IMG/VR virus record: IMGVR_UViG_2541047682_000007
Source: a virus
Taxonomy: Duplodnaviria > Heunggongvirae > Uroviricota > Caudoviricetes
Reading direction: 5' to 3' (one strand)
Length of the DNA: 11,224 nucleotides
Shown here piece after piece: positions 1 through 11,224 of the stretch; positions within the stretch are counted from its first letter, which is position 1; each line of letters starts with the position of its first letter. The notes beneath the pieces were generated by a model. The model ran no database searches. It worked only from the letters and a program-made list of their open reading frames with translations, and had not been told where the DNA came from. Position numbers and translations under genes: made by a program.

Positions 1-97
1 AGTCTTGAGTCTTGAGTCTTGAGTCTTGAGTCTTGAGTCTTGAGTCTTGAGTCTTGAGTCTTGAGTCTTGAGTCTTGAGTCTTGAGTCTTGAGTCTT
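1..97 (-). repeat. Tandem heptanucleotide repeat array (AGTCTTG as written; 5'-AAGACTC-3' on the coding strand), 13 complete copies plus a 6-nt partial copy abutting the window edge
   Basis: Direct reading: perfect 7-bp periodicity from position 1 to 97, ending in ...gagtcttaacat. On the minus strand this reads ATG TTA (AAGACTC)n, encoding RLKTQDS heptads. The array runs into the window edge, so the true copy number is unknown. Confidence 0.95.
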
Positions 98-102
98 AAC
101 AT
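1..102 (-). CDS. neuO: 5' end of polysialic acid O-acetyltransferase NeuO (partial; gene continues beyond window start)
   Basis: ATG at 102..100 (minus) followed by TTA and the AAGACTC repeats. This matches my recollection of the neuO contingency locus of K1 prophage CUS-3 (heptanucleotide VNTR in the 5' coding region). Position immediately downstream of a P22-like endosialidase tailspike fits. Identity rests on the repeat signature only, since the gene body is outside the window. Confidence 0.7.
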   Translation of the reverse strand, partial: MLRLKTQDSRLKTQDSRLKTQDSRLKTQDSRLKT

Positions 103-159
103 ATTAGTATCCTACGTTATTTTACCACTAGTTACTTTTCTTGTCATTAAAAAGCATTT

Positions 160-190
160 AAATTTTTATATTTAATTTCGTTGACGTCAA
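160..190 (-). promoter_or_regulatory. Candidate sigma70-like promoter region for neuO (TTGACG at 190..185 on minus strand inside palindrome TTGACGTCAA; A/T-rich -10 candidates TATAAA/AAAAAT around 170..162)
   Basis: AT-rich intergenic region between the tailspike stop (256) and neuO start (102). Hexamers found by eye; spacing is not ideal (14-17 bp depending on the -10 chosen). Low confidence. Confidence 0.2.
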
Positions 191-255
191 TGTTTTTTGC
201 CAATGTACTTACTTCTTTATGTGATCAGTTCATATTTTTGACGCCAACGAAACAT

Positions 256-3201
256 TTAGTGCTTCCCTTCTATTAAGTCTAACCTAGCTTTTATTCTTTC
301 TATTTCTCTGCGCTGCCATGCTGCCTCGATATAGAATAAGAGATCAGGTCTGACCCCCCATCTAGATCCTGCTGGCGTTATTTCAACGCGCTCAATGATG
401 TCTTCCATTACCATCACTGGATTATCATCCTCATCAACAATGATGCTCCCGTCATTATCAGTCAGCGGCATTTCCCTTTGGCCAGTAATGACGTCATCAT
501 ATACTGCGGGATAATCGTCATAGCAAAGAAAGGCATAGCGGCATGTTGTGCTTTCTTCTTCCATGAGTCCGTGAGAAATAAGAACATCACGAAGTTGCTG
601 CGCGATTACACCATGATGTATCCTCGCCCCTTCTTCCCCCTTTATAGCGACAGCGTTCAGCCATTTATAAGCGATATACCTGACGTCACCCCAGGCATCC
701 AGCAATGTTTCGTCAGGAGAGACCGGCTCTGTCTTTAATGTTCCGTCACTGGTAACCACAGGATTGGAGCCAAGATAAACTATCGAGAACCTGTTTCCCG
801 GACCACCAAGAGCATTTACATTATCAAGATAAGGTTTAACATCTCCGTTCTCAAAAAGATGTTCGAGTGCGTTATATACCGCGCGACGTGGAGTACTGCT
901 TCTGGAACCATGCAACGTTATCATTGCACCATCTGCTGAAGACGTTGTTTCACCGCCGCTAACGATTAATCTCTGAGCGGTAACATCATCAGACGGTACT
1001 TTCTTCGCAATAATGGCGTAATTACCCTCAAGTTTGACTTCCGCGCGAACTTGTCCTGATGTACCTGCATGGACAGTCAGTGACTGGACGGCAACATCAT
1101 CTGTGAAATCAACGGGTACAGGAACCGTCCTCACGCCTGACGTCGACATAAAAGTAGGAAGCGTTCTGTTAGGAGTGGCTCCGTAGACAAAATCCCTTGA
1201 AACAAATTCTTCCTGTTTAATTTTCACCCTGAAACAATACAAATCAGCCGGGTGACCATCGTGAACATAAGGATATTTTCTGTTGTTATCCCCTATGCTC
1301 CATGGGTTTAGAAAGTCTTCCCCACCGAAAATGTAGTACAGCCAGTTGTCTTTGATACAAACTGAACCAACACCAACCGCAGAGTTAACTATTCCGCCCT
1401 GATAAATCTGATCAGTAACATTAACCCACTCTACATTATCCAGACTCCACTCATTGACGTTAACTCTGGTCATAAATGTTCTTGGATAGTTTCCTGCATA
1501 ACGGTTATCAGGTTCTCCTCCTTCCCACTCACCAAATGCGCGCTCACTGCCAAAAATAATCAGCTCATCGCCAACTTTGGCAAAAGGAAGGTTTGAGTGA
1601 TGAACATTATTTGGGAAGCGAAGAGAATTCCATGATGTACCTAAATCAGAGCTTCTGTGCAATGAACTACCGGGTTGAGTACTTAATGTCCCCCTGGTCG
1701 TCAGATACAGAATGCCATCATAATATTTTACACATGGCTCAGATGCATTCGCCTCATATTCTGCAGGTATGCGTCTGCGAACAAAGCTACCAGGAGAACC
1801 GAAAGCATCAGAGAAATAGAGTATCCCAAGCTCGCGTGGACCAATATCACCATTATGGTAGCCAACAGCAAAACTGTTATCGCTAATCGTCGCAAAACTG
1901 TGAATCTCAGTAACAGGAGTGCTTCCGTCAACAAAAGAAGGAATAGTTCCAAGACTGGTTTTTCTCCATGGTGACGAGTGAAATGATGTACCAAAACTCC
2001 AGTATCTACCCTCGTTATTCTGATCCACATCCTGGGTATTTTGCGTCGTAACTGTAAAAGTATTTTTATCAATAACAGTAGTCACCGTCATATTCCCGGT
2101 AACACCTGTAACACCAGAGTTTGAGAAGTTGACAAAATCACCAGCAAATAATCCGTGATCAGTAATGCGAATATAAGCGACTTGCTGATTTGCTGCTTTC
2201 GTTATACCACCATAAACGCGAAGGCTGCGACTCATTGGGCGATCCCACAACTCTGCAACCTGCAGTTTATTTCCGCTCACGGTCCGCGTCTCAATTACAG
2301 CAAAAAGGCGATTTCTGACAACCCCCATACTCATGCAGTGATAGTTAACTGTGGGATAGTTTTCATGTAAATCTGTAAGCCATTCCGGCGTTGTCCAGGT
2401 CTTCCCGTCATCTCCTGAGCGAACCCATGCAACATGGAGGTTATTTACACCATGGCGGTCTCCAGCCATAAAAGGCGCATAGATGACATTGTCATATACA
2501 AACGTTTTATCCTGCGTCCAGGCGTTGTACCACGGTGTATCTGTAATTTTAAATAACTCTCCCTGGATAAAATCTTCAGAAACATAAAAAAGAGGCTGAC
2601 CCGGTATTCTCTCAAATAAAAAACGAGCATTTTTAAATCGACTGACATCTGGAAGAGTTGATACTTTAAAAGTAAGCCCTCGCCCATCTATCTTTTCACC
2701 ACCTGTTGCAACAGAAAGTAATTCTGATAGAGCTGATGTATCATCATGAACACCATCACCAATAGCCCCCCAACCTCTTACATCATAACTGTCTCTCCAT
2801 CTTGCTATCTGAAGTTTTGGGTATTTATTCGCTCCATCTGGGTCTTCTAATTGCTGCCGTAGTTGATCAGGATCATACTTCAGCACATTCTGGAAATAGA
2901 ACTGCTGTACGCCATACGCATCGTACACAGCCATAGAATGGCCTTGCACAGTTACGAACTTGGCAATCCGTCCGTTATATACAGGGTAACCAGCAGCGTT
3001 AATGATGATTGGTTGCGAAACAGGAACGTGAGAGCCGTCTTCGTTCTCTACATAAACCTGAATCCGGTTTTCAGGATTTACCGGGTCAGTGTCAATTTTA
3101 CCGATATAAATTTTGCCATTGGCTACGGCTTTAAAAGAACGCGCCATAGTGAAGAGTTGCGAAGGCATCGATACAATCACATTGGCTGTAATGTCTGTCA
3201 T
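256..3201 (-). CDS. Tailspike protein: P22-type head-binding N-terminal domain fused to an endo-N-acetylneuraminidase (endosialidase) domain with a C-terminal intramolecular chaperone (S74-type) domain
   Basis: 981-aa ORF. N-terminus [13 protein letters not shown]...[21 protein letters not shown]...[15 protein letters not shown]...LKYDPDQ closely parallels the P22 gp9 head-binding domain as I remember it. Central region carries sialidase Asp-box motifs ([16 protein letters not shown]). The C-terminal ~150 aa resemble the auto-cleaving chaperone domain of K1-phage endosialidases. RBS GGAG 8-9 nt upstream of ATG at 3201. Confidence 0.9.
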
Positions 3202-3259
3202 TTAATTTGCTCCAGATGCAAAGAATCGCCGCAGCATGGCCACGGTGAATTTTGGGCAT

Positions 3260-3282
3260 AAAAAAACCCAGCCGAAGCTGGG
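3260..3282 (-). terminator. Rho-independent terminator between ant and the tailspike gene
   Basis: On the minus strand: stem CCCAGC, loop TTCG, stem GCTGGG, followed by TTTTTTT (plus-strand 3267-3282 cccagccgaagctggg preceded by an A-run). Confidence 0.6.
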
Positions 3283-3301
3283 TCGTTGCGTTGGTTATCT
3301 G

Positions 3302-4204
3302 TCAGTAATTATGTACTGAAGGAGGTAATTCTTTATTCTTAAGTCTCATCCATGCGGAAAGATTCGTTGGTCCGTCTGGCTCATTGATATCAACATCTCG
3401 TGTGTGATTGATTAAAACGTCTCTCGCCATATCGATAATACGGGAGAACTCATAACCGCAGTCATGACATCTGCCGGAATAGTTCGATTGAATTTGTTTT
3501 AGCGCCGGATACAGTTCGCGGAATAATGCCTGTGAGCGGTTGGCATAATCCCATAGCCATACAAGGCTGTTTGCTTCTTTTGCAGAAAGCTCGTTGGTTT
3601 TCTTCTCTTGTTTGCCGATGAACTCACCTTCAAGCACTACCCTGTGGATGTACTCTACTGCTTGTGGTATCTGAGATGCATCAAGCTCTTCAATACTTTC
3701 CACATTGAAACGCTGATGAATCATTGCATAAGCTTCTGGGTACATTAGATGCTTTTTGCTGACTAGCATATTTACAGCATCACGAAGCGGAGTCCTGTCA
3801 TCAACAGATGTTTTCTTCCGTGCATTTGCTGCCTCTCCCTTTGTCCAGTAGTCATGCAGCACAGTAAAGCATTCTTCCTGGTACTGAATCAGTTTATCGC
3901 GGATGTCAGCACGAACTTTCTCAGGGTTGATGCTGAACAGCCATCCATTTAACTTCTTCAAAGGAAGGCAGAGTAGCTTACGAAGCTTACCATCAGCGGC
4001 AACCATGTTCATATGAACACAGTTGAATTTGCTAATCTGCTTCATGAGTTTTGTTTGCTGCGTTGACCAGCTCATTCCGAGGTTTTCAACGATTGGCTTC
4101 ATCGCAACATATGCAACTCCGGCAGCCATGGCGGTGATAATTTGCTGACCGTTGAATGGCACGTAAGAGGTGTTCACTGCTTCTAAAATTGCTATACTAT
4201 TCAT
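3302..4204 (-). CDS. ant: Antirepressor Ant (P22 immI-type, 300 aa)
   Basis: ORF-track ORF 3302..4270 contains an internal ATG at 4204 preceded by GGAG with a 10-nt spacer. From that start the product is 300 aa, the length I recall for P22 Ant, beginning [21 protein letters not shown]. The longer 322-aa reading begins with GTG at 4270 and lacks a good RBS. Position between arc and the tailspike matches P22 immI. Confidence 0.8.
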
Positions 4205-4285
4205 GTTGGTTTTTCTCCACGGATTTACCGACAACCGAAGCCCTGACTGTTCCAGCAGTTGGGGCTTCACTGTTTTGATTTCTTT
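4205..4285 (+). ncRNA. Candidate Sar-like antisense RNA opposite the ant ribosome-binding site and start
   Basis: Plus-strand extended -10 element TGcTATACT (4190-4198) would put a start near 4205, directly opposite the ant start codon. Plus-strand hairpin GAAGCCC..ACTG-ttccag-CAGT..GGGCTTC (4237-4268) is followed by a T-rich tract ACTGTTTTGATTTCTTT (4269-4285). This is analogous to the P22 sar RNA. Inference only. Confidence 0.3.
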
Positions 4286-4436
4286 GCCGCATCAAGCATC
4301 ACTTCTGAAAACGTGCGCTTGCCACTGAATACTCTTTCTCTTCTCAATTTTTCGTTCGTGCCAAATGATTCGCCATGAACAAAATTTGGTCTTAAAATGG
4401 TAATCGCAATCTCTTTGACTACTGCATCCAAGCGAA

Positions 4437-4589
4437 TCACACCGTTACCCCCTCTCTCTTCAGGCTGTCTATCAGGCGCTTGATAACCTCTGAGTTAAAC
4501 GACCTGCACTCTTCCTTTGCCCTGCTACCGATAGCATCCTTTAACGACTGCGGCATCCTTACCAAAATCTTACTTATTTCTTTCTCCAT
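4437..4589 (-). CDS. arc: Arc repressor (ribbon-helix-helix, 50 aa)
   Basis: ATG at 4589 preceded by GGAGG with a 5-nt spacer. Product MEKEISKILVRMPQSLKDAIGSRAKEECRSFNSEVIKRLIDSLKREGVTV shows the P22 Arc pattern (MP-F/Q..., GRS-NSE). The longer track ORF begins with TTG. Divergent from mnt, upstream of ant. Confidence 0.8.
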   Translation of the reverse strand: MEKEISKILVRMPQSLKDAIGSRAKEECRSFNSEVIKRLIDSLKREGVTV

Positions 4590-4703
4590 GTTACCCTCCA
4601 CGCAAACAACTCTTTTCGAATACAAAAGATAGCAAAGTGAGTATATCTAGTCAAAATTTTTTTGCATACACTTTGCTATCAAATTGAATACCAAAGGTGT
4701 TAT
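4590..4703. promoter_or_regulatory. Divergent Pant/Pmnt control region containing a 13-bp perfect inverted repeat (aGATAGCAAAGTG 4627-4639 / CACTTTGCTATCt 4669-4681; 29-bp spacer)
   Basis: Intergenic region between divergently oriented arc and mnt. The inverted repeat was read directly. Minus-strand TTGACT (4654..4649) with TATCTT (4631..4626) 17 bp downstream is a plausible Pant. Exact hexamers are uncertain. Confidence 0.5.
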
Positions 4704-4952
4704 ATGGCAAAGGGTGTGTCAATTTCTCCAACTACGGTAAGAATCCCTGAATCTTTACGCGAGGCTCTTGCTGTCAGAGCATCAAAAAATGGTCGCTCTG
4801 TTAACTCCGAGATCGTCATGATTTTGCAAGCCGCGATTGATGAAGATAGGTCGCCAAAGTCAGTTGAGTCATTTGCTCAGCAAGAAGCTGATAAATTCAA
4901 AGAGGCGCTACTTGAGACGCTAAAGACCATGTATGCTAAGGATGAAAAATAA
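4704..4952 (+). CDS. mnt: Mnt repressor (ribbon-helix-helix, 82 aa)
   Basis: ATG at 4704 with AAGGTG 4 nt upstream. Product MAKGVSISPTTVRIPESLREALAVRASKNGRSVNSEI...ALLETLKTMYAKDEK parallels P22 Mnt (82-83 aa; ANGRSMNSE...TLKDLYKK). The track ORF is 5'-extended by an implausible upstream start. Confidence 0.85.
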   Translation: MAKGVSISPTTVRIPESLREALAVRASKNGRSVNSEIVMILQAAIDEDRSPKSVESFAQQEADKFKEALLETLKTMYAKDEK

Positions 4953-5488
4953 TGCTGCACACAATTCATTTCTTATGCCCTGTTAACACTGCCACTGTTG
5001 GGCAACTTCAGAACCACTGTCTCACCGCATTATCTCAAGGCGCAACTGAATTAAATATCCATATATCAAGTCAGGGAGGGGAAACTGCTGCTGGCTTTAC
5101 TGCGTATAACTTTCTTAAGTCACTCCCTGTTACCGTTAGAACTCACAACATAAGCAATGTTGAATCCATAGCTAATATCGTTTTCCTGGCTGGCTCAGAA
5201 CGTTTCGCAAACCCATTATCAAGATTCCTGTTACATCCTCTATTATGGTGCTTTGCCTCCCCAGCCGCCGACCATGCCAGATTGAGAGAGTACGGGAAAT
5301 GCCTCGATAACGATCTTGATCGCTTCGTTGAGACGTTCAATATCGACATCGGAACCCATATTAGGTGGGCATCCCTGATAGCAGACTCGACCATTTTGGA
5401 TGCTAACAAGGCTCTTGAGCATGGCATAATTAATTCCATAAAAACTGCAAGGCTGGCATCCAATCAGGCAAACTGGTGGGTTGTTTGA
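4952..5488 (+). CDS. ClpP-like (peptidase S14 / ClpP-crotonase fold) serine peptidase homolog, 178 aa, translationally coupled to mnt
   Basis: Start ATG overlaps the mnt stop (TAATG at 4950-4954). By-eye alignment to E. coli ClpP: ISSQGG vs INSPGG; NVESIANIVFLAG vs GQAASMGAFLLTAG (catalytic Ser aligned); RFANPLSRFLLHP vs RFCLPNSRVMIHQP (catalytic His aligned); LDNDLDRF vs ERDTERDRF (catalytic Asp aligned). Followed by a terminator hairpin. Confidence 0.7.
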   Translation: MLHTIHFLCPVNTATVGQLQNHCLTALSQGATELNIHISSQGGETAAGFTAYNFLKSLPVTVRTHNISNVESIANIVFLAGSERFANPLSRFLLHPLLWCFASPAADHARLREYGKCLDNDLDRFVETFNIDIGTHIRWASLIADSTILDANKALEHGIINSIKTARLASNQANWWVV

Positions 5489-5513
5489 TGGGTAAATCAT
5501 GATTACTCCTTAT

Positions 5514-5538
5514 AAAAAACCCACCTGACGGTGGGTTT
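5514..5538 (+). terminator. Hairpin terminator downstream of the ClpP-like gene (possibly bidirectional)
   Basis: aaaaaaCCCACC-tgac-GGTGGGttt. The GC stem is flanked by an A-run upstream and T's downstream, so on the minus strand it reads as stem plus TTTTTT. The plus-strand T-tract is short (3 T). Confidence 0.5.
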
Positions 5539-5767
5539 AGTCAAACATAGTGTTTCTAAAGTCTCTCGCATACCCTGCTAACACTCTCATTCTATTATGA
5601 TTGTTAGCAGACATGTGAGCTACAGGATGAAAAAGAGCAATCAATGAATACCTGTTCTCATCAAAAAGATTTTGTGCATAAACGAGAGCGGTATTTGAAG
5701 TGGTTTACTGAATTTGGCCACCTGAACAGAGGTGATATGCTCACCTCAGAACAACACAGGTGCCATA

Positions 5768-6915
<1,148 letters not shown>

Positions 6916-7112
6916 CTCGGTGGCCAGTTTTTGTTGACCACTTCAATGCAACAGTTCGCTATTGCAGGGGCGGCATCGGTTCGCCCTTTCAACCCGATTT
7001 TATCGGTACAGCATTCACGAAAAAACATTTTAACCGGAGCAGACTTTAAACAACCAAGAATGAAAAGCTTGCTCGAAAAGCTTTGGGATATTTTGAAACA
7101 ACAAGGCCGTCC

Positions 7113-7271
7113 ATGAGTTTTACGGATAACTGGTCAGACGAAGAATTCATTCGTCAGATAAAAGAATTAATCGGTAACGAAGGAGATATTCATGTCACTT
7201 GCAACCACAGTGAAGGAGAGCAAGTTACAGAGACGCATGTACACGCAGAAAGCTCTCTGGTATCGCCATAA
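7113..7271 (+). CDS. Hypothetical small protein (52 aa) in the early-left operon upstream of erf
   Basis: ATG at 7113 with AAGG about 7 nt upstream; acidic product MSFTDNWSDEEFIRQIKELIGNEGD.... Overlaps an alternative 56-codon ORF (7192..7362) in another frame, so both cannot be fully correct. Confidence 0.3.
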   Translation: MSFTDNWSDEEFIRQIKELIGNEGDIHVTCNHSEGEQVTETHVHAESSLVSP

Positions 7272-7362
7272 TGGTGACCGCGAAGGAATGCGGGTATGCC
7301 TTAATTTGTCCCGAGTCGAAGTATTAAATCAGCGTTATTTCCTTGGGCCGTGTCCATTCTGA
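7192..7362 (+). CDS. Hypothetical small basic protein (56 aa) immediately upstream of erf (position of arf/kil in P22)
   Basis: ATG at 7192 preceded by AGGAG with a 6-nt spacer. Product MSLATTVKESKLQRRMYTQKALWYRHNGDREGMRVCLNLSRVEVLNQRYFLGPCPF. Stop is 10 nt before the erf start. Below the ORF-track length cutoff, found by manual translation. Confidence 0.3.
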   Translation: MSLATTVKESKLQRRMYTQKALWYRHNGDREGMRVCLNLSRVEVLNQRYFLGPCPF

Positions 7363-7372
7363 GAGCAATCAT

Positions 7373-7978
7373 ATGAGCAAAGAATTTTACGCAAGACTGG
7401 CAGCTATTCAGGAGAATCTGAACGCGCCAAAGAATCAGTACAACTCATTCGGCAAATATAAATACAGAAGCTGCGAAGATATTCTTGAAGGCGTTAAGCC
7501 GTTACTGAACGGTCTGTTTTTATCAATCAGCGATGAAGTTGTGTTGATTGGTGATCGGTATTACGTGAAAGCCACGGCAACTATTACCGATGGCGAAAAC
7601 AGTCATACGGCAACCGCTCTTGCACGAGAGGAAGAAAGCAAGAAAGGAATGGATTCTGCACAAGTTACGGGAGCTACAAGCTCTTATGCACGCAAGTATT
7701 GCCTCAATGGTTTGTTCGGCATTGATGATGCGAAAGATGCAGATACAGACGAGCATAAACATCAGCAGAACGCAGCAGCAAAGCAATCAAAACCATCACT
7801 TACACCTGAACAGGTTCTAAAAGCATTCACTGACGCAGCAATGCAGAAAAACACCGTAGAAGAGCTTAAACAGGCGTTCGCCAAAGCGTGGAAGATGCTC
7901 GAAGGGACGCCGGAGCAGCACAAAGCGCAGGACGTTTACAACATCAGACGAGACGAATTAGAAGGGGCAACTGCTTAA
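7373..7978 (+). CDS. erf: Erf (essential recombination function) single-strand annealing recombinase
   Basis: Product from ATG 7373: MSKEFYARLAAIQENLNAPKNQYNSFGKYKYRSCEDILEGVKPLLNGLFLSISDEVVLIGDRYYVKATATITDGENSH... is near-identical in its N-terminal ~130 aa to my recollection of P22 Erf. The track ORF is extended upstream from a TTG. Confidence 0.9.
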   Translation: MSKEFYARLAAIQENLNAPKNQYNSFGKYKYRSCEDILEGVKPLLNGLFLSISDEVVLIGDRYYVKATATITDGENSHTATALAREEESKKGMDSAQVTGATSSYARKYCLNGLFGIDDAKDADTDEHKHQQNAAAKQSKPSLTPEQVLKAFTDAAMQKNTVEELKQAFAKAWKMLEGTPEQHKAQDVYNIRRDELEGATA

Positions 7979-8361
7979 TGGCACATTCGATTACAGTAAG
8001 ACTAAACAAACCCGCAAGAGAGTTTCAGGGCGGGGAAAATATCGGATTCAACATCCGTGCTGGCGTTCAGTATTACGATCGCCAGACAAAAAAGAAAGAA
8101 TGGACAAACTACAGCGCCGTTGTATTTGCCAAGCCGGGAGCGCAAGCGGATTACTATCGTAGCGTTCTGGTTGAAGGAGGCATTGTAGAAATTACCGGAG
8201 AAAACATCAGGGTTGATGTTTATCAGGGGCAAAATGGTCAATCAATCACTCTTGAATTACTGAATGCAAAGATTGGATTTGCAACTTCAGGAAACAGCCA
8301 ACAGCAGCAAAGTAGCAATCATCAAAATAATCCTGAATACGACGATTCCATCCCATTCTGA
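7978..8361 (+). CDS. ssb: Phage single-stranded DNA-binding protein (short SSB, 127 aa)
   Basis: ATG overlaps the erf stop (TAATG at 7976-7980). OB-fold-like core (KEWTNYSAVVFAKPGAQADYYRSVLVEGGIVEITGE, compare E. coli SSB [33 protein letters not shown]). Gln-rich linker and canonical acidic C-terminal tail ...PEYDDSIPF (E. coli SSB ends DFDDDIPF). Confidence 0.85.
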   Translation: MAHSITVRLNKPAREFQGGENIGFNIRAGVQYYDRQTKKKEWTNYSAVVFAKPGAQADYYRSVLVEGGIVEITGENIRVDVYQGQNGQSITLELLNAKIGFATSGNSQQQQSSNHQNNPEYDDSIPF

Positions 8362-8384
8362 TTTAGAAAAATAAGGATTTAATT

Positions 8385-8681
8385 ATGCCAGCGCCTTTGT
8401 ATGGTGCGGATGACCCGCGCCGCTGTTCCGGCAATTCCGTATCGGAGGTGCTGGATAAATTCAGAAAAAACTACGATCGAATAATGTCTCTACCGCAGGA
8501 AACGAAAGAGGAAAAGGAATTTCGCCACTGTATATGGCTTGCAGAGAAAGAAGAACGCGAGCGAATTTACCAGACATCAATCCGACCATTCCGCAAAGCC
8601 ACATATACCCACTTCCCTGAATATATCGACCCGCGCCTGCGTAATTACCGCTCACGCTATGGCGCTATCAGTAATGACTGA
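8385..8681 (+). CDS. Hypothetical protein (98 aa), Ea-region
   Basis: ATG at 8385 with AAGGA 7 nt upstream. Same strand and operon context as erf-ssb. No recognisable motif. Confidence 0.55.
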   Translation: MPAPLYGADDPRRCSGNSVSEVLDKFRKNYDRIMSLPQETKEEKEFRHCIWLAEKEERERIYQTSIRPFRKATYTHFPEYIDPRLRNYRSRYGAISND

Positions 8682-8775
8682 GGAATTTACCATGAGAGGA
8701 CTTGCTTAAGAGAAAGAGTTTCGGTTCTGTTAATGACAACAAATATCTGAATGCGATGTGGCGGAGTGGGAAGAA

Positions 8776-9294
8776 ATGAAACAAATGTCACTAATTGAGA
8801 TGGATGGTTTTCTGAAAGGTAAATGCATCCCAAGTGATTTAAAGGTTAACGAAACAAACGCTGAATACCTTGTCCGTAAGTTCGGTGAACTTGAATCAAA
8901 ACTGGAAACGGCGTTGCGGGAGTGTAGTTCTGCTGGAATCACGATTGATAACCTTGAGGCTAAATGCGCGAAGATGGCTGCTGAAAATACCTCACTTAAG
9001 CAATCTGAGAAGGAATTTAATGACTTTTGTCGTGAGGAGTTTAGCGAATGGGAAGATGATGTTACTGAAACCCCAGCCACCGATGCTTTTCTGGCTGAAG
9101 TGCGGGCGCAGGGGGTGGATGCTGCTATAGAAGCTGCAAAAAATCTGGTGGCCCAAGAATATGAGTATAAGGATTTCAAAGCGGCGCAGAGTGATTGCTG
9201 TATGCACCCTGGTTCAGACCTGGTAGGGAAGGTTGAAATGACTGAGTGGTTAGTTGACTTTGCTGCCCAGCTTCGCAAAGGAGGCAACCAGTGA
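8776..9294 (+). CDS. Ead/Ea22-like acidic protein (about 172 aa; start uncertain, GTG 8758 or ATG 8776)
   Basis: Long acidic ORF in the Ea region, with GGAG 9 nt upstream of ATG 8776. The family assignment is from general resemblance to lambdoid Ea22-type proteins and is tentative. Confidence 0.55.
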   Translation: MKQMSLIEMDGFLKGKCIPSDLKVNETNAEYLVRKFGELESKLETALRECSSAGITIDNLEAKCAKMAAENTSLKQSEKEFNDFCREEFSEWEDDVTETPATDAFLAEVRAQGVDAAIEAAKNLVAQEYEYKDFKAAQSDCCMHPGSDLVGKVEMTEWLVDFAAQLRKGGNQ

Positions 9295-9590
9295 CTGTAT
9301 GTCTTATTGATAAACGTCGACGTGGGCAACAAATACCATCTGTTGAAATGCCGAATCACACATGGTTTTGCGTACTTGATATCGATGGTATGGATACGTT
9401 GGTTGACACTCGTCATTACTGCGATACCGCAACAGCTACTCCGGCGAAAGCAAAGAAAATGGCTGCTCTGATAGAAAACTGGACTCCACCTGATGGTTGG
9501 TGCAATGGGAATGATCGAGATTGGCACGAAAAAATGAAGGGCTATATCTGCGATTTTTTACGTAAATGCAACGGCTTCAGGGGGATGTGA
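9291..9590 (+). CDS. Hypothetical Cys-containing protein (99 aa), GTG start overlapping upstream stop (GTGA)
   Basis: Strong RBS AAAGGAGG 6 nt upstream of GTG 9291. Start overlaps the stop of the preceding ORF, suggesting translational coupling. Confidence 0.5.
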   Translation: MTVCLIDKRRRGQQIPSVEMPNHTWFCVLDIDGMDTLVDTRHYCDTATATPAKAKKMAALIENWTPPDGWCNGNDRDWHEKMKGYICDFLRKCNGFRGM

Positions 9591-9591
9591 T

Positions 9592-10164
9592 ATGACCAAA
9601 ATTAACTATCAGGCACTGCGTGAGGCGGCAGAACGTGCAATTCCGGCAATGGAACGCCTGTTAATGTTGCCAGTTGATGATGATTTGTTAAGTGAACAGG
9701 AACTTAAGGATTACGGTGTGGATATTGATGCGCTCAACGCCTTCAAATTTCTGACCGGACCAGAAACCGTGCTGGCGCTGCTGGATGAACGGGAAAGAAA
9801 CCAGCAATACATCAAACGCCGCGACCAGGAGAACGAGGAAATTGCGCTAACGGTAGGGAAGCTGCGCGTTGAGCTGGAAGCTGCAGAGAAGCGCATTGCA
9901 GAACTGGAAGCCGAACCTGTAAGCCAAACTTACAAGTTGAACGAGCTGTCGGGCAACTATCCGGTAACTCCGGATGGTTGGATAAGCTGTAGTGAGCGAA
10001 TGCCCGCTCAAGATGATTGGATTTTAATTTATTCAAAGCACGGCGAGTATATGGCAGGACAGGTACAAGGGGAATACGTGGAGTTGAGCGACGGCACTTT
10101 ATCGTGGTTAGGGAACGCCTTGTACTGGATGCCTCTACCGGAACCGCCGCAGGAGGTTAATTGA
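9592..10164 (+). CDS. DUF551-type / Ea22-like prophage protein (190 aa) with central coiled-coil
   Basis: N-terminal MTKINYQALREAAERA... and C-terminal TPDGWISCSERMPAQDDWILIY...LYWMPLPEPP resemble the DUF551 C-terminal domain common in lambdoid early-left regions. Coiled-coil segment KLRVELEAAEKRIAELEAE. ATG 2 nt after the upstream stop. Confidence 0.7.
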   Translation: MTKINYQALREAAERAIPAMERLLMLPVDDDLLSEQELKDYGVDIDALNAFKFLTGPETVLALLDERERNQQYIKRRDQENEEIALTVGKLRVELEAAEKRIAELEAEPVSQTYKLNELSGNYPVTPDGWISCSERMPAQDDWILIYSKHGEYMAGQVQGEYVELSDGTLSWLGNALYWMPLPEPPQEVN

Positions 10165-10358
10165 TGGTCTCCTTCGCGAAATATACGATTATTGACTGGA
10201 TAGCATTCATTCAGGTTTTGCTCATCTGGTTTTATATGGCTTACAGGAGTGGACAGTGGATTGTCAGTGTAGCCTGTAGCAATGGATGGCGTTGGTGGAA
10301 CCGAAAGAATAAAAAAAGCGCTGGCCTTGGCTTCGTTTTACGAAGCATTCAATCTTAA
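10164..10358 (+). CDS. Small hydrophobic (predicted membrane) protein, 64 aa
   Basis: ATG at 10164 overlaps the upstream stop (TGATG) and is preceded by AGGAGG with a 7-nt spacer. Hydrophobic helix IIDWIAFIQVLLIWFYMAY followed by a basic W/R/K-rich tail. Confidence 0.45.
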   Translation: MVSFAKYTIIDWIAFIQVLLIWFYMAYRSGQWIVSVACSNGWRWWNRKNKKSAGLGFVLRSIQS

Positions 10359-10441
10359 CAGTCTTCAGCCTGGTTCTGTCGTTGTAGTCACCACTCAAAG
10401 CGGCATGACGATACAAATTCACAAGCCAAAGGAGGAAGGTC

Positions 10442-10726
10442 GTGGCTAACCTGCAACTTGCCGTTAAAGGTGAATACTTCGATGCCATGATTCGCGGAGA
10501 GAAAACGGAAGAGTATCGCCTGTGTAATGACTACTGGAATAAGCGAATTATGTTCCGCGAGTATGACCGCCTGATTATCACAAAGGGATATCCGAAGCGC
10601 GACGATTCCAGCCGCAGAATTGACGTCCCGTATGACGGATATGAAATCAAGACAATCACACATCCGCACTTCGGCGATAAACCGGTAAAGGTGTTCGCTA
10701 TAAAGGTGAATATCGACAATGAATGA
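10442..10726 (+). CDS. ASCH/PUA-like domain protein (94 aa), GTG start
   Basis: GTG at 10442 preceded by AAGGAGGAAGG. Motif ...GEKTEEYR... resembles the ASCH-domain signature (GxKTxExR) seen in small phage proteins. Assignment is tentative. Confidence 0.55.
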   Translation: MANLQLAVKGEYFDAMIRGEKTEEYRLCNDYWNKRIMFREYDRLIITKGYPKRDDSSRRIDVPYDGYEIKTITHPHFGDKPVKVFAIKVNIDNE

Positions 10727-10798
10727 TAATCCTCGCACTCGCGGGGATTTCTTTTATCTGAACTCGCTACGGCGGGTTTTGTTTTATGGAGATGATAA

Positions 10799-10966
10799 AT
10801 GCACTTCCGAGTCACAGGTGAATGGAATGGAGAGCCATTCAACAGAGTTATCGAAGCAGAGAACATCAACGACTGCTATGACCACTGGATGCTGTGGGCG
10901 CAGATAGCACATGCAGACGTAACTAATATTCGAATTGAAGAACTGAAAGAACACCAAGCCGCCTGA
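10799..10966 (+). CDS. Hypothetical small protein (55 aa)
   Basis: ATG at 10799 with GGAG 7 nt upstream. Product MHFRVTGEWNGEPFNRVIEAENINDCYDHWMLWAQIAHADVTNIRIEELKEHQAA. Stop codon lies in the loop of a terminator hairpin. Below the ORF-track cutoff. Preferred over the overlapping track ORF 10719..10907. Confidence 0.4.
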   Translation: MHFRVTGEWNGEPFNRVIEAENINDCYDHWMLWAQIAHADVTNIRIEELKEHQAA

Positions 10967-10978
10967 TGGCGGTTTTTT
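10956..10978 (+). terminator. Rho-independent terminator at the end of the Ea gene cluster
   Basis: CCGCC-tgat-GGCGG stem-loop (10959-10972) followed by TTTTTTATT. Confidence 0.6.
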
Positions 10979-11023
10979 ATTGCCTGATTTGCAGGTTCGA
11001 TTCCCTATTCGGAGATAGCACTC

Positions 11024-11224
11024 ATGCAACACGAACTACAACCTGATTCACTGGTTGATTTGAAATTCATCATGGCCGATACTGGCTTCGGTAAAACCTT
11101 CATCTATGACCGGATTAAGTCCGGCGACCTGCCAAAAGCCAAAGTTATCCACGGGCGAGCAAGATGGTTATATCGTGACCATTGTGAATTCAAAAATAAG
11201 CTCTTAAGCCGCGCCAATGGGTAA
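11024..11224 (+). CDS. xis: Excisionase / AlpA-family DNA-binding protein (Xis), 66 aa
   Basis: GGAG 9 nt upstream of ATG 11024. Product carries an AlpA/Xis-like pattern (FIMADTGFGKTFIYDRIKSGDLPKAKVIHGRARWLYRD..., compare the typical ...TGLSRSTIYRLIKEGKFPKP...GRSVRW...). Lies at the distal end of the early-left operon, where xis precedes int in P22-like prophages. Confidence 0.65.
   Translation: MQHELQPDSLVDLKFIMADTGFGKTFIYDRIKSGDLPKAKVIHGRARWLYRDHCEFKNKLLSRANG

Follow-up and report, generated by a model that had tools for sequence, protein, structure and literature searches.

The simple-sequence contingency loci of Neisseria and Haemophilus carry, in the 5' part of the coding sequence, a repeat with a unit of 1-5 nt that is not a multiple of three. 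As in neuO, slippage in these loci shifts the reading frame and turns a surface-modifying enzyme ON or OFF; neuO departs from them in that its unit is 7 nt long, that it is carried by a prophage and that its active protein retains the translated repeat, which tunes catalytic efficiency (PMC3046976). OatWY of N. meningitidis W-135/Y (PDB 2WLC) has a homologous left-handed beta-helix body and also modifies a sialic acid capsule, but the alignment covers the body only (query residues 46-229), OatWY being devoid of the heptad N-terminal extension. The OatWY gene is chromosomal and lies in the capsule locus, whereas neuO is prophage-borne. P22 gtrABC and Sf6 oac are receptor-modifying lysogenic-conversion morons of P22-like phages. 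Like neuO, they are low-GC accessory cassettes, with the tailspike gene on one side and the int/att region on the other, that alter the polysaccharide recognised by the phage's own tailspike; they act on the O-antigen, whereas neuO acts on the capsule and is phase-variable via an internal VNTR.

The closest described locus is the neuO locus of CUS-3 in E. coli K1 RS218 (Deszo et al. 2005, as cited in PMC9659370 and PMC3046976). The stretch of DNA analysed here (11,224 nt, IMG/VR record IMGVR_UViG_2541047682_000007, hereafter the window) has in common with it the flanking DNA, the AAGACTC unit and its register, the position downstream of siaK1 and the argW/dsdC chromosomal site. The two loci differ in several respects: the RS218 array has 19 copies while that of the window has at least 14 and is cut by the edge; the surrounding prophage is an IS3-deleted remnant of about 13 kb, compared with 40 kb for CUS-3; and the ant/arc/mnt region of the window follows the S88/APEC O1 variant, unlike that of RS218.

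Positions 1-1200 of the window are 100% identical to positions 2271-3470 of Enterobacteria phage CUS-3 (CP000711), the annotation of which reads 'neuO ... poly(psi) domain; contains 19 copies of heptanucleotide repeat AAGACTC' and names the gene next to neuO siaK1, the endosialidase tailspike. An earlier note on this DNA, made from its letters alone, had called the locus neuO, and the identity of the flank to a record so annotated upholds the name. The siaK1 product encoded in the window has the full endosialidase set of Pfam domains (Head_binding, End_N_terminal, End_beta_propel, End_beta_barrel, End_tail_spike and Peptidase_S74), and the array lies directly downstream of this gene in a CUS-3-type P22-like prophage. 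Of 5,426 complete E. coli genomes, 182 carry at least 80% of the flank (98-1200), in every case on the chromosome and in almost every case at an identity of at least 99%; near-identical loci sit between argW and dsdC.

Tandem Repeats Finder detects a single tandem array across the 11.2-kb window, at 1-97 (period 7, 13.9 copies, 100% matches, 0 indels, score 194). The perfect minus-strand AAGACTC array of the earlier note is therefore real, as are its 13 or more complete copies, and six of the seven bases of a fourteenth copy are seen as well. The minus strand reads AGGATACTAAT, then ATG TT, (AAGACTC)13, AAGACT and the window edge. The array was said to follow ATG TTA; this register has to be corrected, the first AAGACTC beginning 2 nt 3' of the start codon (ATGTT followed by AAGACTC), exactly as published (PMC3046976). 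In-frame translation of the neuO 5' end gives M-L-(RLKTQDS)n, so that three copies do encode one RLKTQDS heptad, as had been proposed. The copy number in this genome is at least 14: the array runs off the window before its end and, as the earlier note rightly stated, the ON/OFF state cannot be called from the window. The features of the locus and of its surroundings are collected in Table 1.

Table 1. Features of the neuO locus and of the surrounding prophage remnant, in window coordinates.
Feature	Position	Strand	Description	Basis or remark
neuO poly(psi) VNTR	1..97	-	AAGACTC x13 (97..7) + AAGACT (6..1)	cut by window edge
neuO start	98..102	-	ATG 102..100 + TT 99..98	read from sequence
Putative Shine-Dalgarno-like AGGA	110..113	-	7 nt before ATG	read from sequence
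neuO cassette (moron), in-window part	1..141	-	upstream boundary 141/142	
Sigma-70-like site (predicted)	119..147	-	ATGACA (147..142), 17-nt spacer, TAAAAT (124..119)	10/12, consensus scan
Sigma-70-like site (predicted)	162..190	-	TTGACG (190..185), 17-nt spacer, AAAAAT (167..162)	9/12, consensus scan
Inverted repeat	176-190 / 238-252		15-nt arms, 14/15 complementary, 47-nt spacer	begins just past siaK1 stop
siaK1 endosialidase tailspike	256-3201	-	981 aa, intact	directly upstream of neuO, same strand
sar RNA	4205-4271	+	Rfam RF00262	83.9 bits vs gathering score 43
Arc-like gene	4437-4625	-		
Arc-like gene	4662-4952	+		
Clp-protease-like gene	4952-5488	+		
ISEc52-type IS3 element	5696-6945		orfA 5732-6070, orfB 6097-6915	inverted ends TGAAGTGGT...
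attR core of CUS-3	10989-11004		16 nt, TTGCAGGTTCGATTCC	before torI (KplE1-type excisionase gene)

The acetyltransferase body lies to the left of the window, and related loci were used as a surrogate for it. From phage records, IMG/VR, metagenomes and complete E. coli genomes, 31 loci were gathered, 28 of which contain the ATGTT junction with its upstream flank and 20 a complete array. In front of the ATG, all 28 loci have the same 153 nt as the window, and the same acetyltransferase body follows the array in 20/20, CUS-3 included, where the array is succeeded by GTTTTCCGTTGATG... and a body of 214 codons. This 214-aa body, together with the heptads, is identical to PDB 3JQY, the polysialic acid O-acetyltransferase NeuO (E 3e-155); its second-best structure match is meningococcal OatWY (PDB 2WLC, E 3.7e-31), and a Pfam Hexapep match is found in the NeuO body of the related loci. 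The 20 complete arrays hold 5, 7, 8, 13, 16, 18, 18, 19, 20, 20, 20, 21, 22, 30, 32, 32, 34, 36, 39 and 60 copies. In seven of them the number is a multiple of three and the ORF runs for 258-356 aa from the ATG (ON); in the other 13 it is not, and a stop is met after 21-94 codons (OFF). The array is polymorphic between strains, its flanks are invariant and the full ORF is found in multiples of three only. RefSeq places an acyltransferase CDS at this ATG in the ON genomes only, the OFF genomes being annotated with an internal 336-nt fragment alone. The resulting 35% ON equals the unselected 1-in-3 expectation and matches a survey of 64 genomes with 3-53 repeats, 65.6% of which were OFF (PMC13001214); our count of 21 copies in MS7163 is the same as the published one (PMC13001214).

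Positions 1-102 (minus strand) are thus, with little room for doubt, the 5' end of neuO, the phase-variable polysialic acid O-acetyltransferase gene of CUS-3. As a lysogenic-conversion gene of this P22-like prophage, neuO encodes the enzyme that O-acetylates the polysialic acid of E. coli K1. Slipped-strand mispairing during replication would add or remove AAGACTC units. The unit of 7 nt not being a multiple of 3, the left-handed beta-helix acetyltransferase body stays in frame (ON) when the copy number is a multiple of three and at no other count (OFF). A hypervariable array within invariant flanks is the signature of slippage, and the switching of frame by copy number invoked in the earlier note is indeed the published mechanism (PMC3046976, PMC13001214, PMC8653822), only multiples of three being full-length among the related loci. 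Switching has been seen within a clone, from 38 to 39 copies in 2/30 colonies (PMC8653822), and the MS7163 population comprises 93% of 21, 1.9% of 20 and 5.4% of 22 copies (PMC13001214). In ON alleles each three units contribute one RLKTQDS heptad; catalytic efficiency climbs linearly as heptads are added, and the crystal structure shows a disordered heptad domain (PMC3046976). Going by the literature, the array therefore acts as both a switch and a dial. The related loci suggest that the body is retained in this particular genome. Expression of neuO in this decayed remnant is assumed, as no mapped neuO promoter or transcription start was found in the literature searched.

Several alleles among the related loci deserve a separate mention. 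The longest array of the sample, in E. coli PE144 (L031, NZ_OZ287278), has 60 copies and is in frame, encoding a 356-aa NeuO with 20 heptads; its copy number exceeds the 3-53 copies of the 64-genome survey (PMC13001214) and fits the 2-93 copies that PMC3046976 cites. An interrupted array of 15 units is present downstream of the ATG at 2135-2163 (minus strand) of IMGVR_UViG_2537562173_000011 (L005): the variant units AAGCCTC and AAGTCTC recur every six units, giving a 42-nt higher-order period, and the array is in frame in a 251-aa ORF. Such interruptions would be expected to damp slippage. This allele was not found in any other viral contig searched and may be a sequencing error. In E. coli UM146 (L020, NC_017632), nine units are followed by AAGGTT and ten more units, out of frame, which reflects either misassembly or a genuine imperfect allele. 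In phage phiv205-1 (L028, MN340231), neuO starts with ATGTC, codon 2 being TCA (Ser) for TTA (Leu), and its CDS, labelled 'general stress protein', is 777 nt long and corresponds to 18 repeats, ON.

The upstream limit of the neuO insertion can be placed by comparison with a phage that lacks the gene. In vB_EcoP-720R6, a phage devoid of neuO, CUS-3 positions 1561 and 2412 are directly adjacent, the latter being the equivalent of window 142; this makes neuO an 850-bp insertion with its upstream end at window 141. The whole cassette spans 1562-2411 in CUS-3 (850 bp with 19 repeats) and has a GC content of 36%, compared with 44% for siaK1. vB_EcoP-720R6 (L027, ON470605, 2205-2501) is a CUS-3-like phage at the bioA/ybhB site from which precisely the 850-bp cassette is missing and in which int is reduced to its last 84 nt.

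Between this boundary and siaK1, TTGACGTCAA is found at 181-190 and TTGACGCCAA, with one mismatch, at 238-247. The window contains eight perfect 10-bp palindromes, compared with about 11 expected (length/4^5): a 10-bp palindrome alone is ordinary, the pair of copies is not. The earlier note had described a palindrome and a diverged direct repeat of it. Both sites are present, but they are better described as the cores of an inverted repeat; the direct-repeat reading extends only weakly (19 nt, 74% identity). The inverted repeat (176-252) is the only one of such quality in the window and had no equal in 40 Markov simulations. By its place beyond the junction it is a phage backbone element, outside the neuO cassette. 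As it is kept unchanged in vB_EcoP-720R6, it either predates neuO or is independent of neuO. The intergenic region that carries it was recovered from only three CUS-3-like phages in the search for relatives, and since all copies are at least 98% identical, conservation is uninformative.

What this element does can be read in more than one way. The tailspike (late operon) transcript may carry it as a 3'-terminal RNA hairpin that acts as a terminator, stabiliser or insulator between siaK1 and the DNA downstream and affects neuO only indirectly, a reading that we consider rather unlikely. In its favour, the stem starts 5 nt past the siaK1 stop and the mismatch becomes a G.U pair in the minus-strand RNA, the transcribed one, giving 16 continuous base pairs; the fold of 176-252 (-22.3 kcal/mol) has a z-score of -2.69 on this strand and of -1.87 on the plus strand; and the element travels with the tailspike in the neuO-less relative. 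Against it, the z-score is modest, 2/200 shuffles folding as well as the minus-strand element, and the sequences are too alike for covariation to be called upon. The terminator scan found no intrinsic terminator in 1-600, and a canonical terminator can be set aside: the loop is 47 nt long and the stem is followed by AAAUUAAAUAU, with no T-run.

Alternatively, TTGACGTCAA and its copy, which the earlier note took to be possibly regulatory, could form an operator dedicated to neuO and bound, for example, by DsdC, which is improbable on the evidence at hand. The 15-nt inverted repeat formed by the two sites does stand out statistically, TTGACG doubles as a -35-like hexamer and DsdC weakly binds a neuO 'promoter region' fragment in vitro (PMC9659370). 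These points are countered by the position of the element outside the 850-bp cassette and its unchanged presence in a phage that has no neuO, and by the similarity of all available copies. DsdC is reported to activate neuO, but its ChIP peaks fall for the most part within neuO and past its 3' end, not upstream (PMC9659370), and that paper states no DsdC binding motif. When the neuO upstream region (103-255) was compared with the dsdC-dsdX intergenic region, the longest common words were A/T-rich 7-8-mers, no motif of at least 9 nt was common to both and no LysR-like T-N11-A palindrome was found.

The consensus scan predicts five sigma-70-like sites in 1-600, compared with 1.4 expected. The site at 119..147 has a TG at 127..126, that is, an extended -10; it straddles the cassette/backbone junction and its predicted start falls inside the SD sequence. 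In the site at 162..190, the -35 hexamer is the first half of the palindrome and the leader would be about 50 nt long. The inverted repeat and the junction-straddling promoter-like site may together be considered a candidate control region of neuO, though we regard this as doubtful. If so, an RNA hairpin or a protein operator of the backbone could gate transcription into the cassette, and the extended -10 of the cassette would have recruited a -35 of the backbone. Neither the exact cassette boundary nor the recognition that the palindrome is one arm of a backbone inverted repeat was found in the literature searched; both points are minor, and any function attached to them is putative.

We now turn to the prophage around the array. 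Judged from its sequence, the window is an IS3-decayed CUS-3 remnant: 1-3634 matches CUS-3 2271-5904, while the DNA to the right of IS3 jumps to CUS-3 36317-40207 (window 7113-11004, up to the attR core), so that about 28 kb, with the head, tail, lysis, replication and immunity genes, are missing. The IS3 element is flanked by ATT on one side and by ATG on the other, and so has no target-site duplication. Across ant, sar, arc, mnt and the Clp-protease gene, the window agrees with the S88/APEC O1 variant; sar, an antisense RNA of the P22 type, lies opposite the 5' end of ant, the antirepressor gene (3302-4270, minus strand). The IS junction of the window is absent from viral contigs and its structure was seen in no complete E. 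coli genome searched; other IS-mediated decay variants of the prophage exist in complete genomes and all of them keep int-neuO. Decay of CUS-3 and the resulting closeness of neuO to dsdC were described earlier (PMC9659370). At the torI end of the element (window 10989-11004 and 11024-11224; L003 12263 and 12572), the attR core precedes torI, and a second repeat, 17 nt from the argW 3' end (CTGCAGGGGACACCATT), follows it beyond the window. With repeats on both sides of torI, the tRNA 3' segment is duplicated in two pieces around this gene, and the element may actually end further to the right than the annotated attR.

Such extensive decay raises the question of whether the array is here a dead relic, the neuO body having been deleted or disrupted just to the left of the window, an idea to which we give hardly any credence. 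Decay variants are common, both in complete genomes and in the literature, where a decayed CUS-3 with a truncated neuO has been described, strain CE10 having lost the 5' end and hence the array (PMC9659370); moreover, the window lacks about 28 kb of CUS-3 and ends inside the array, which leaves the body out of view. However, the body is intact and int adjoins it in 20/20 loci with a complete array, and six decayed remnants (L003, L004, L011, L029, L030 and L031) are among the loci that keep both. In addition, 6 of the 10 other viral or metagenome contigs with the ATG/array junction end inside the array, and the cut of the window is therefore probably an ordinary short-read assembly break. The IMG/VR provirus contigs L009 and L011 end at exactly the base equivalent to window 11224, so that the window was apparently called as a provirus from a draft contig. 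A scan of genome contigs gave no match to the ATG/array junction. Finally, an assembly artefact or a non-coding repeat can be rejected, as the flank is identical to that of loci in which the array continues into NeuO.

The array is a textbook neuO contingency locus, the mechanism, structure and epidemiology of which are already known, and as such it is not new. Phase variation of neuO alters the antigenicity of the K1 capsule, resistance to K1 phages and neutrophils, and sensitivity to serum (PMC13001214, PMC9659370, PMC8653822). Because this variation is a trait of the K1 capsule, the array shows that the window stems from an extraintestinal E. coli of the K1 type that carries an element derived from CUS-3. 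Short-read assemblies break in the neuO array, so that contigs of this kind do not reveal the phase. Even where IS-mediated decay of the prophage is heavy, the neuO/endosialidase end of CUS-3 is kept, and the cassette boundary and the inverted repeat show where to look for the neuO promoter. The candidate control region, if it is real, would add a transcriptional layer, possibly DsdC-dependent, to the known translational switch.
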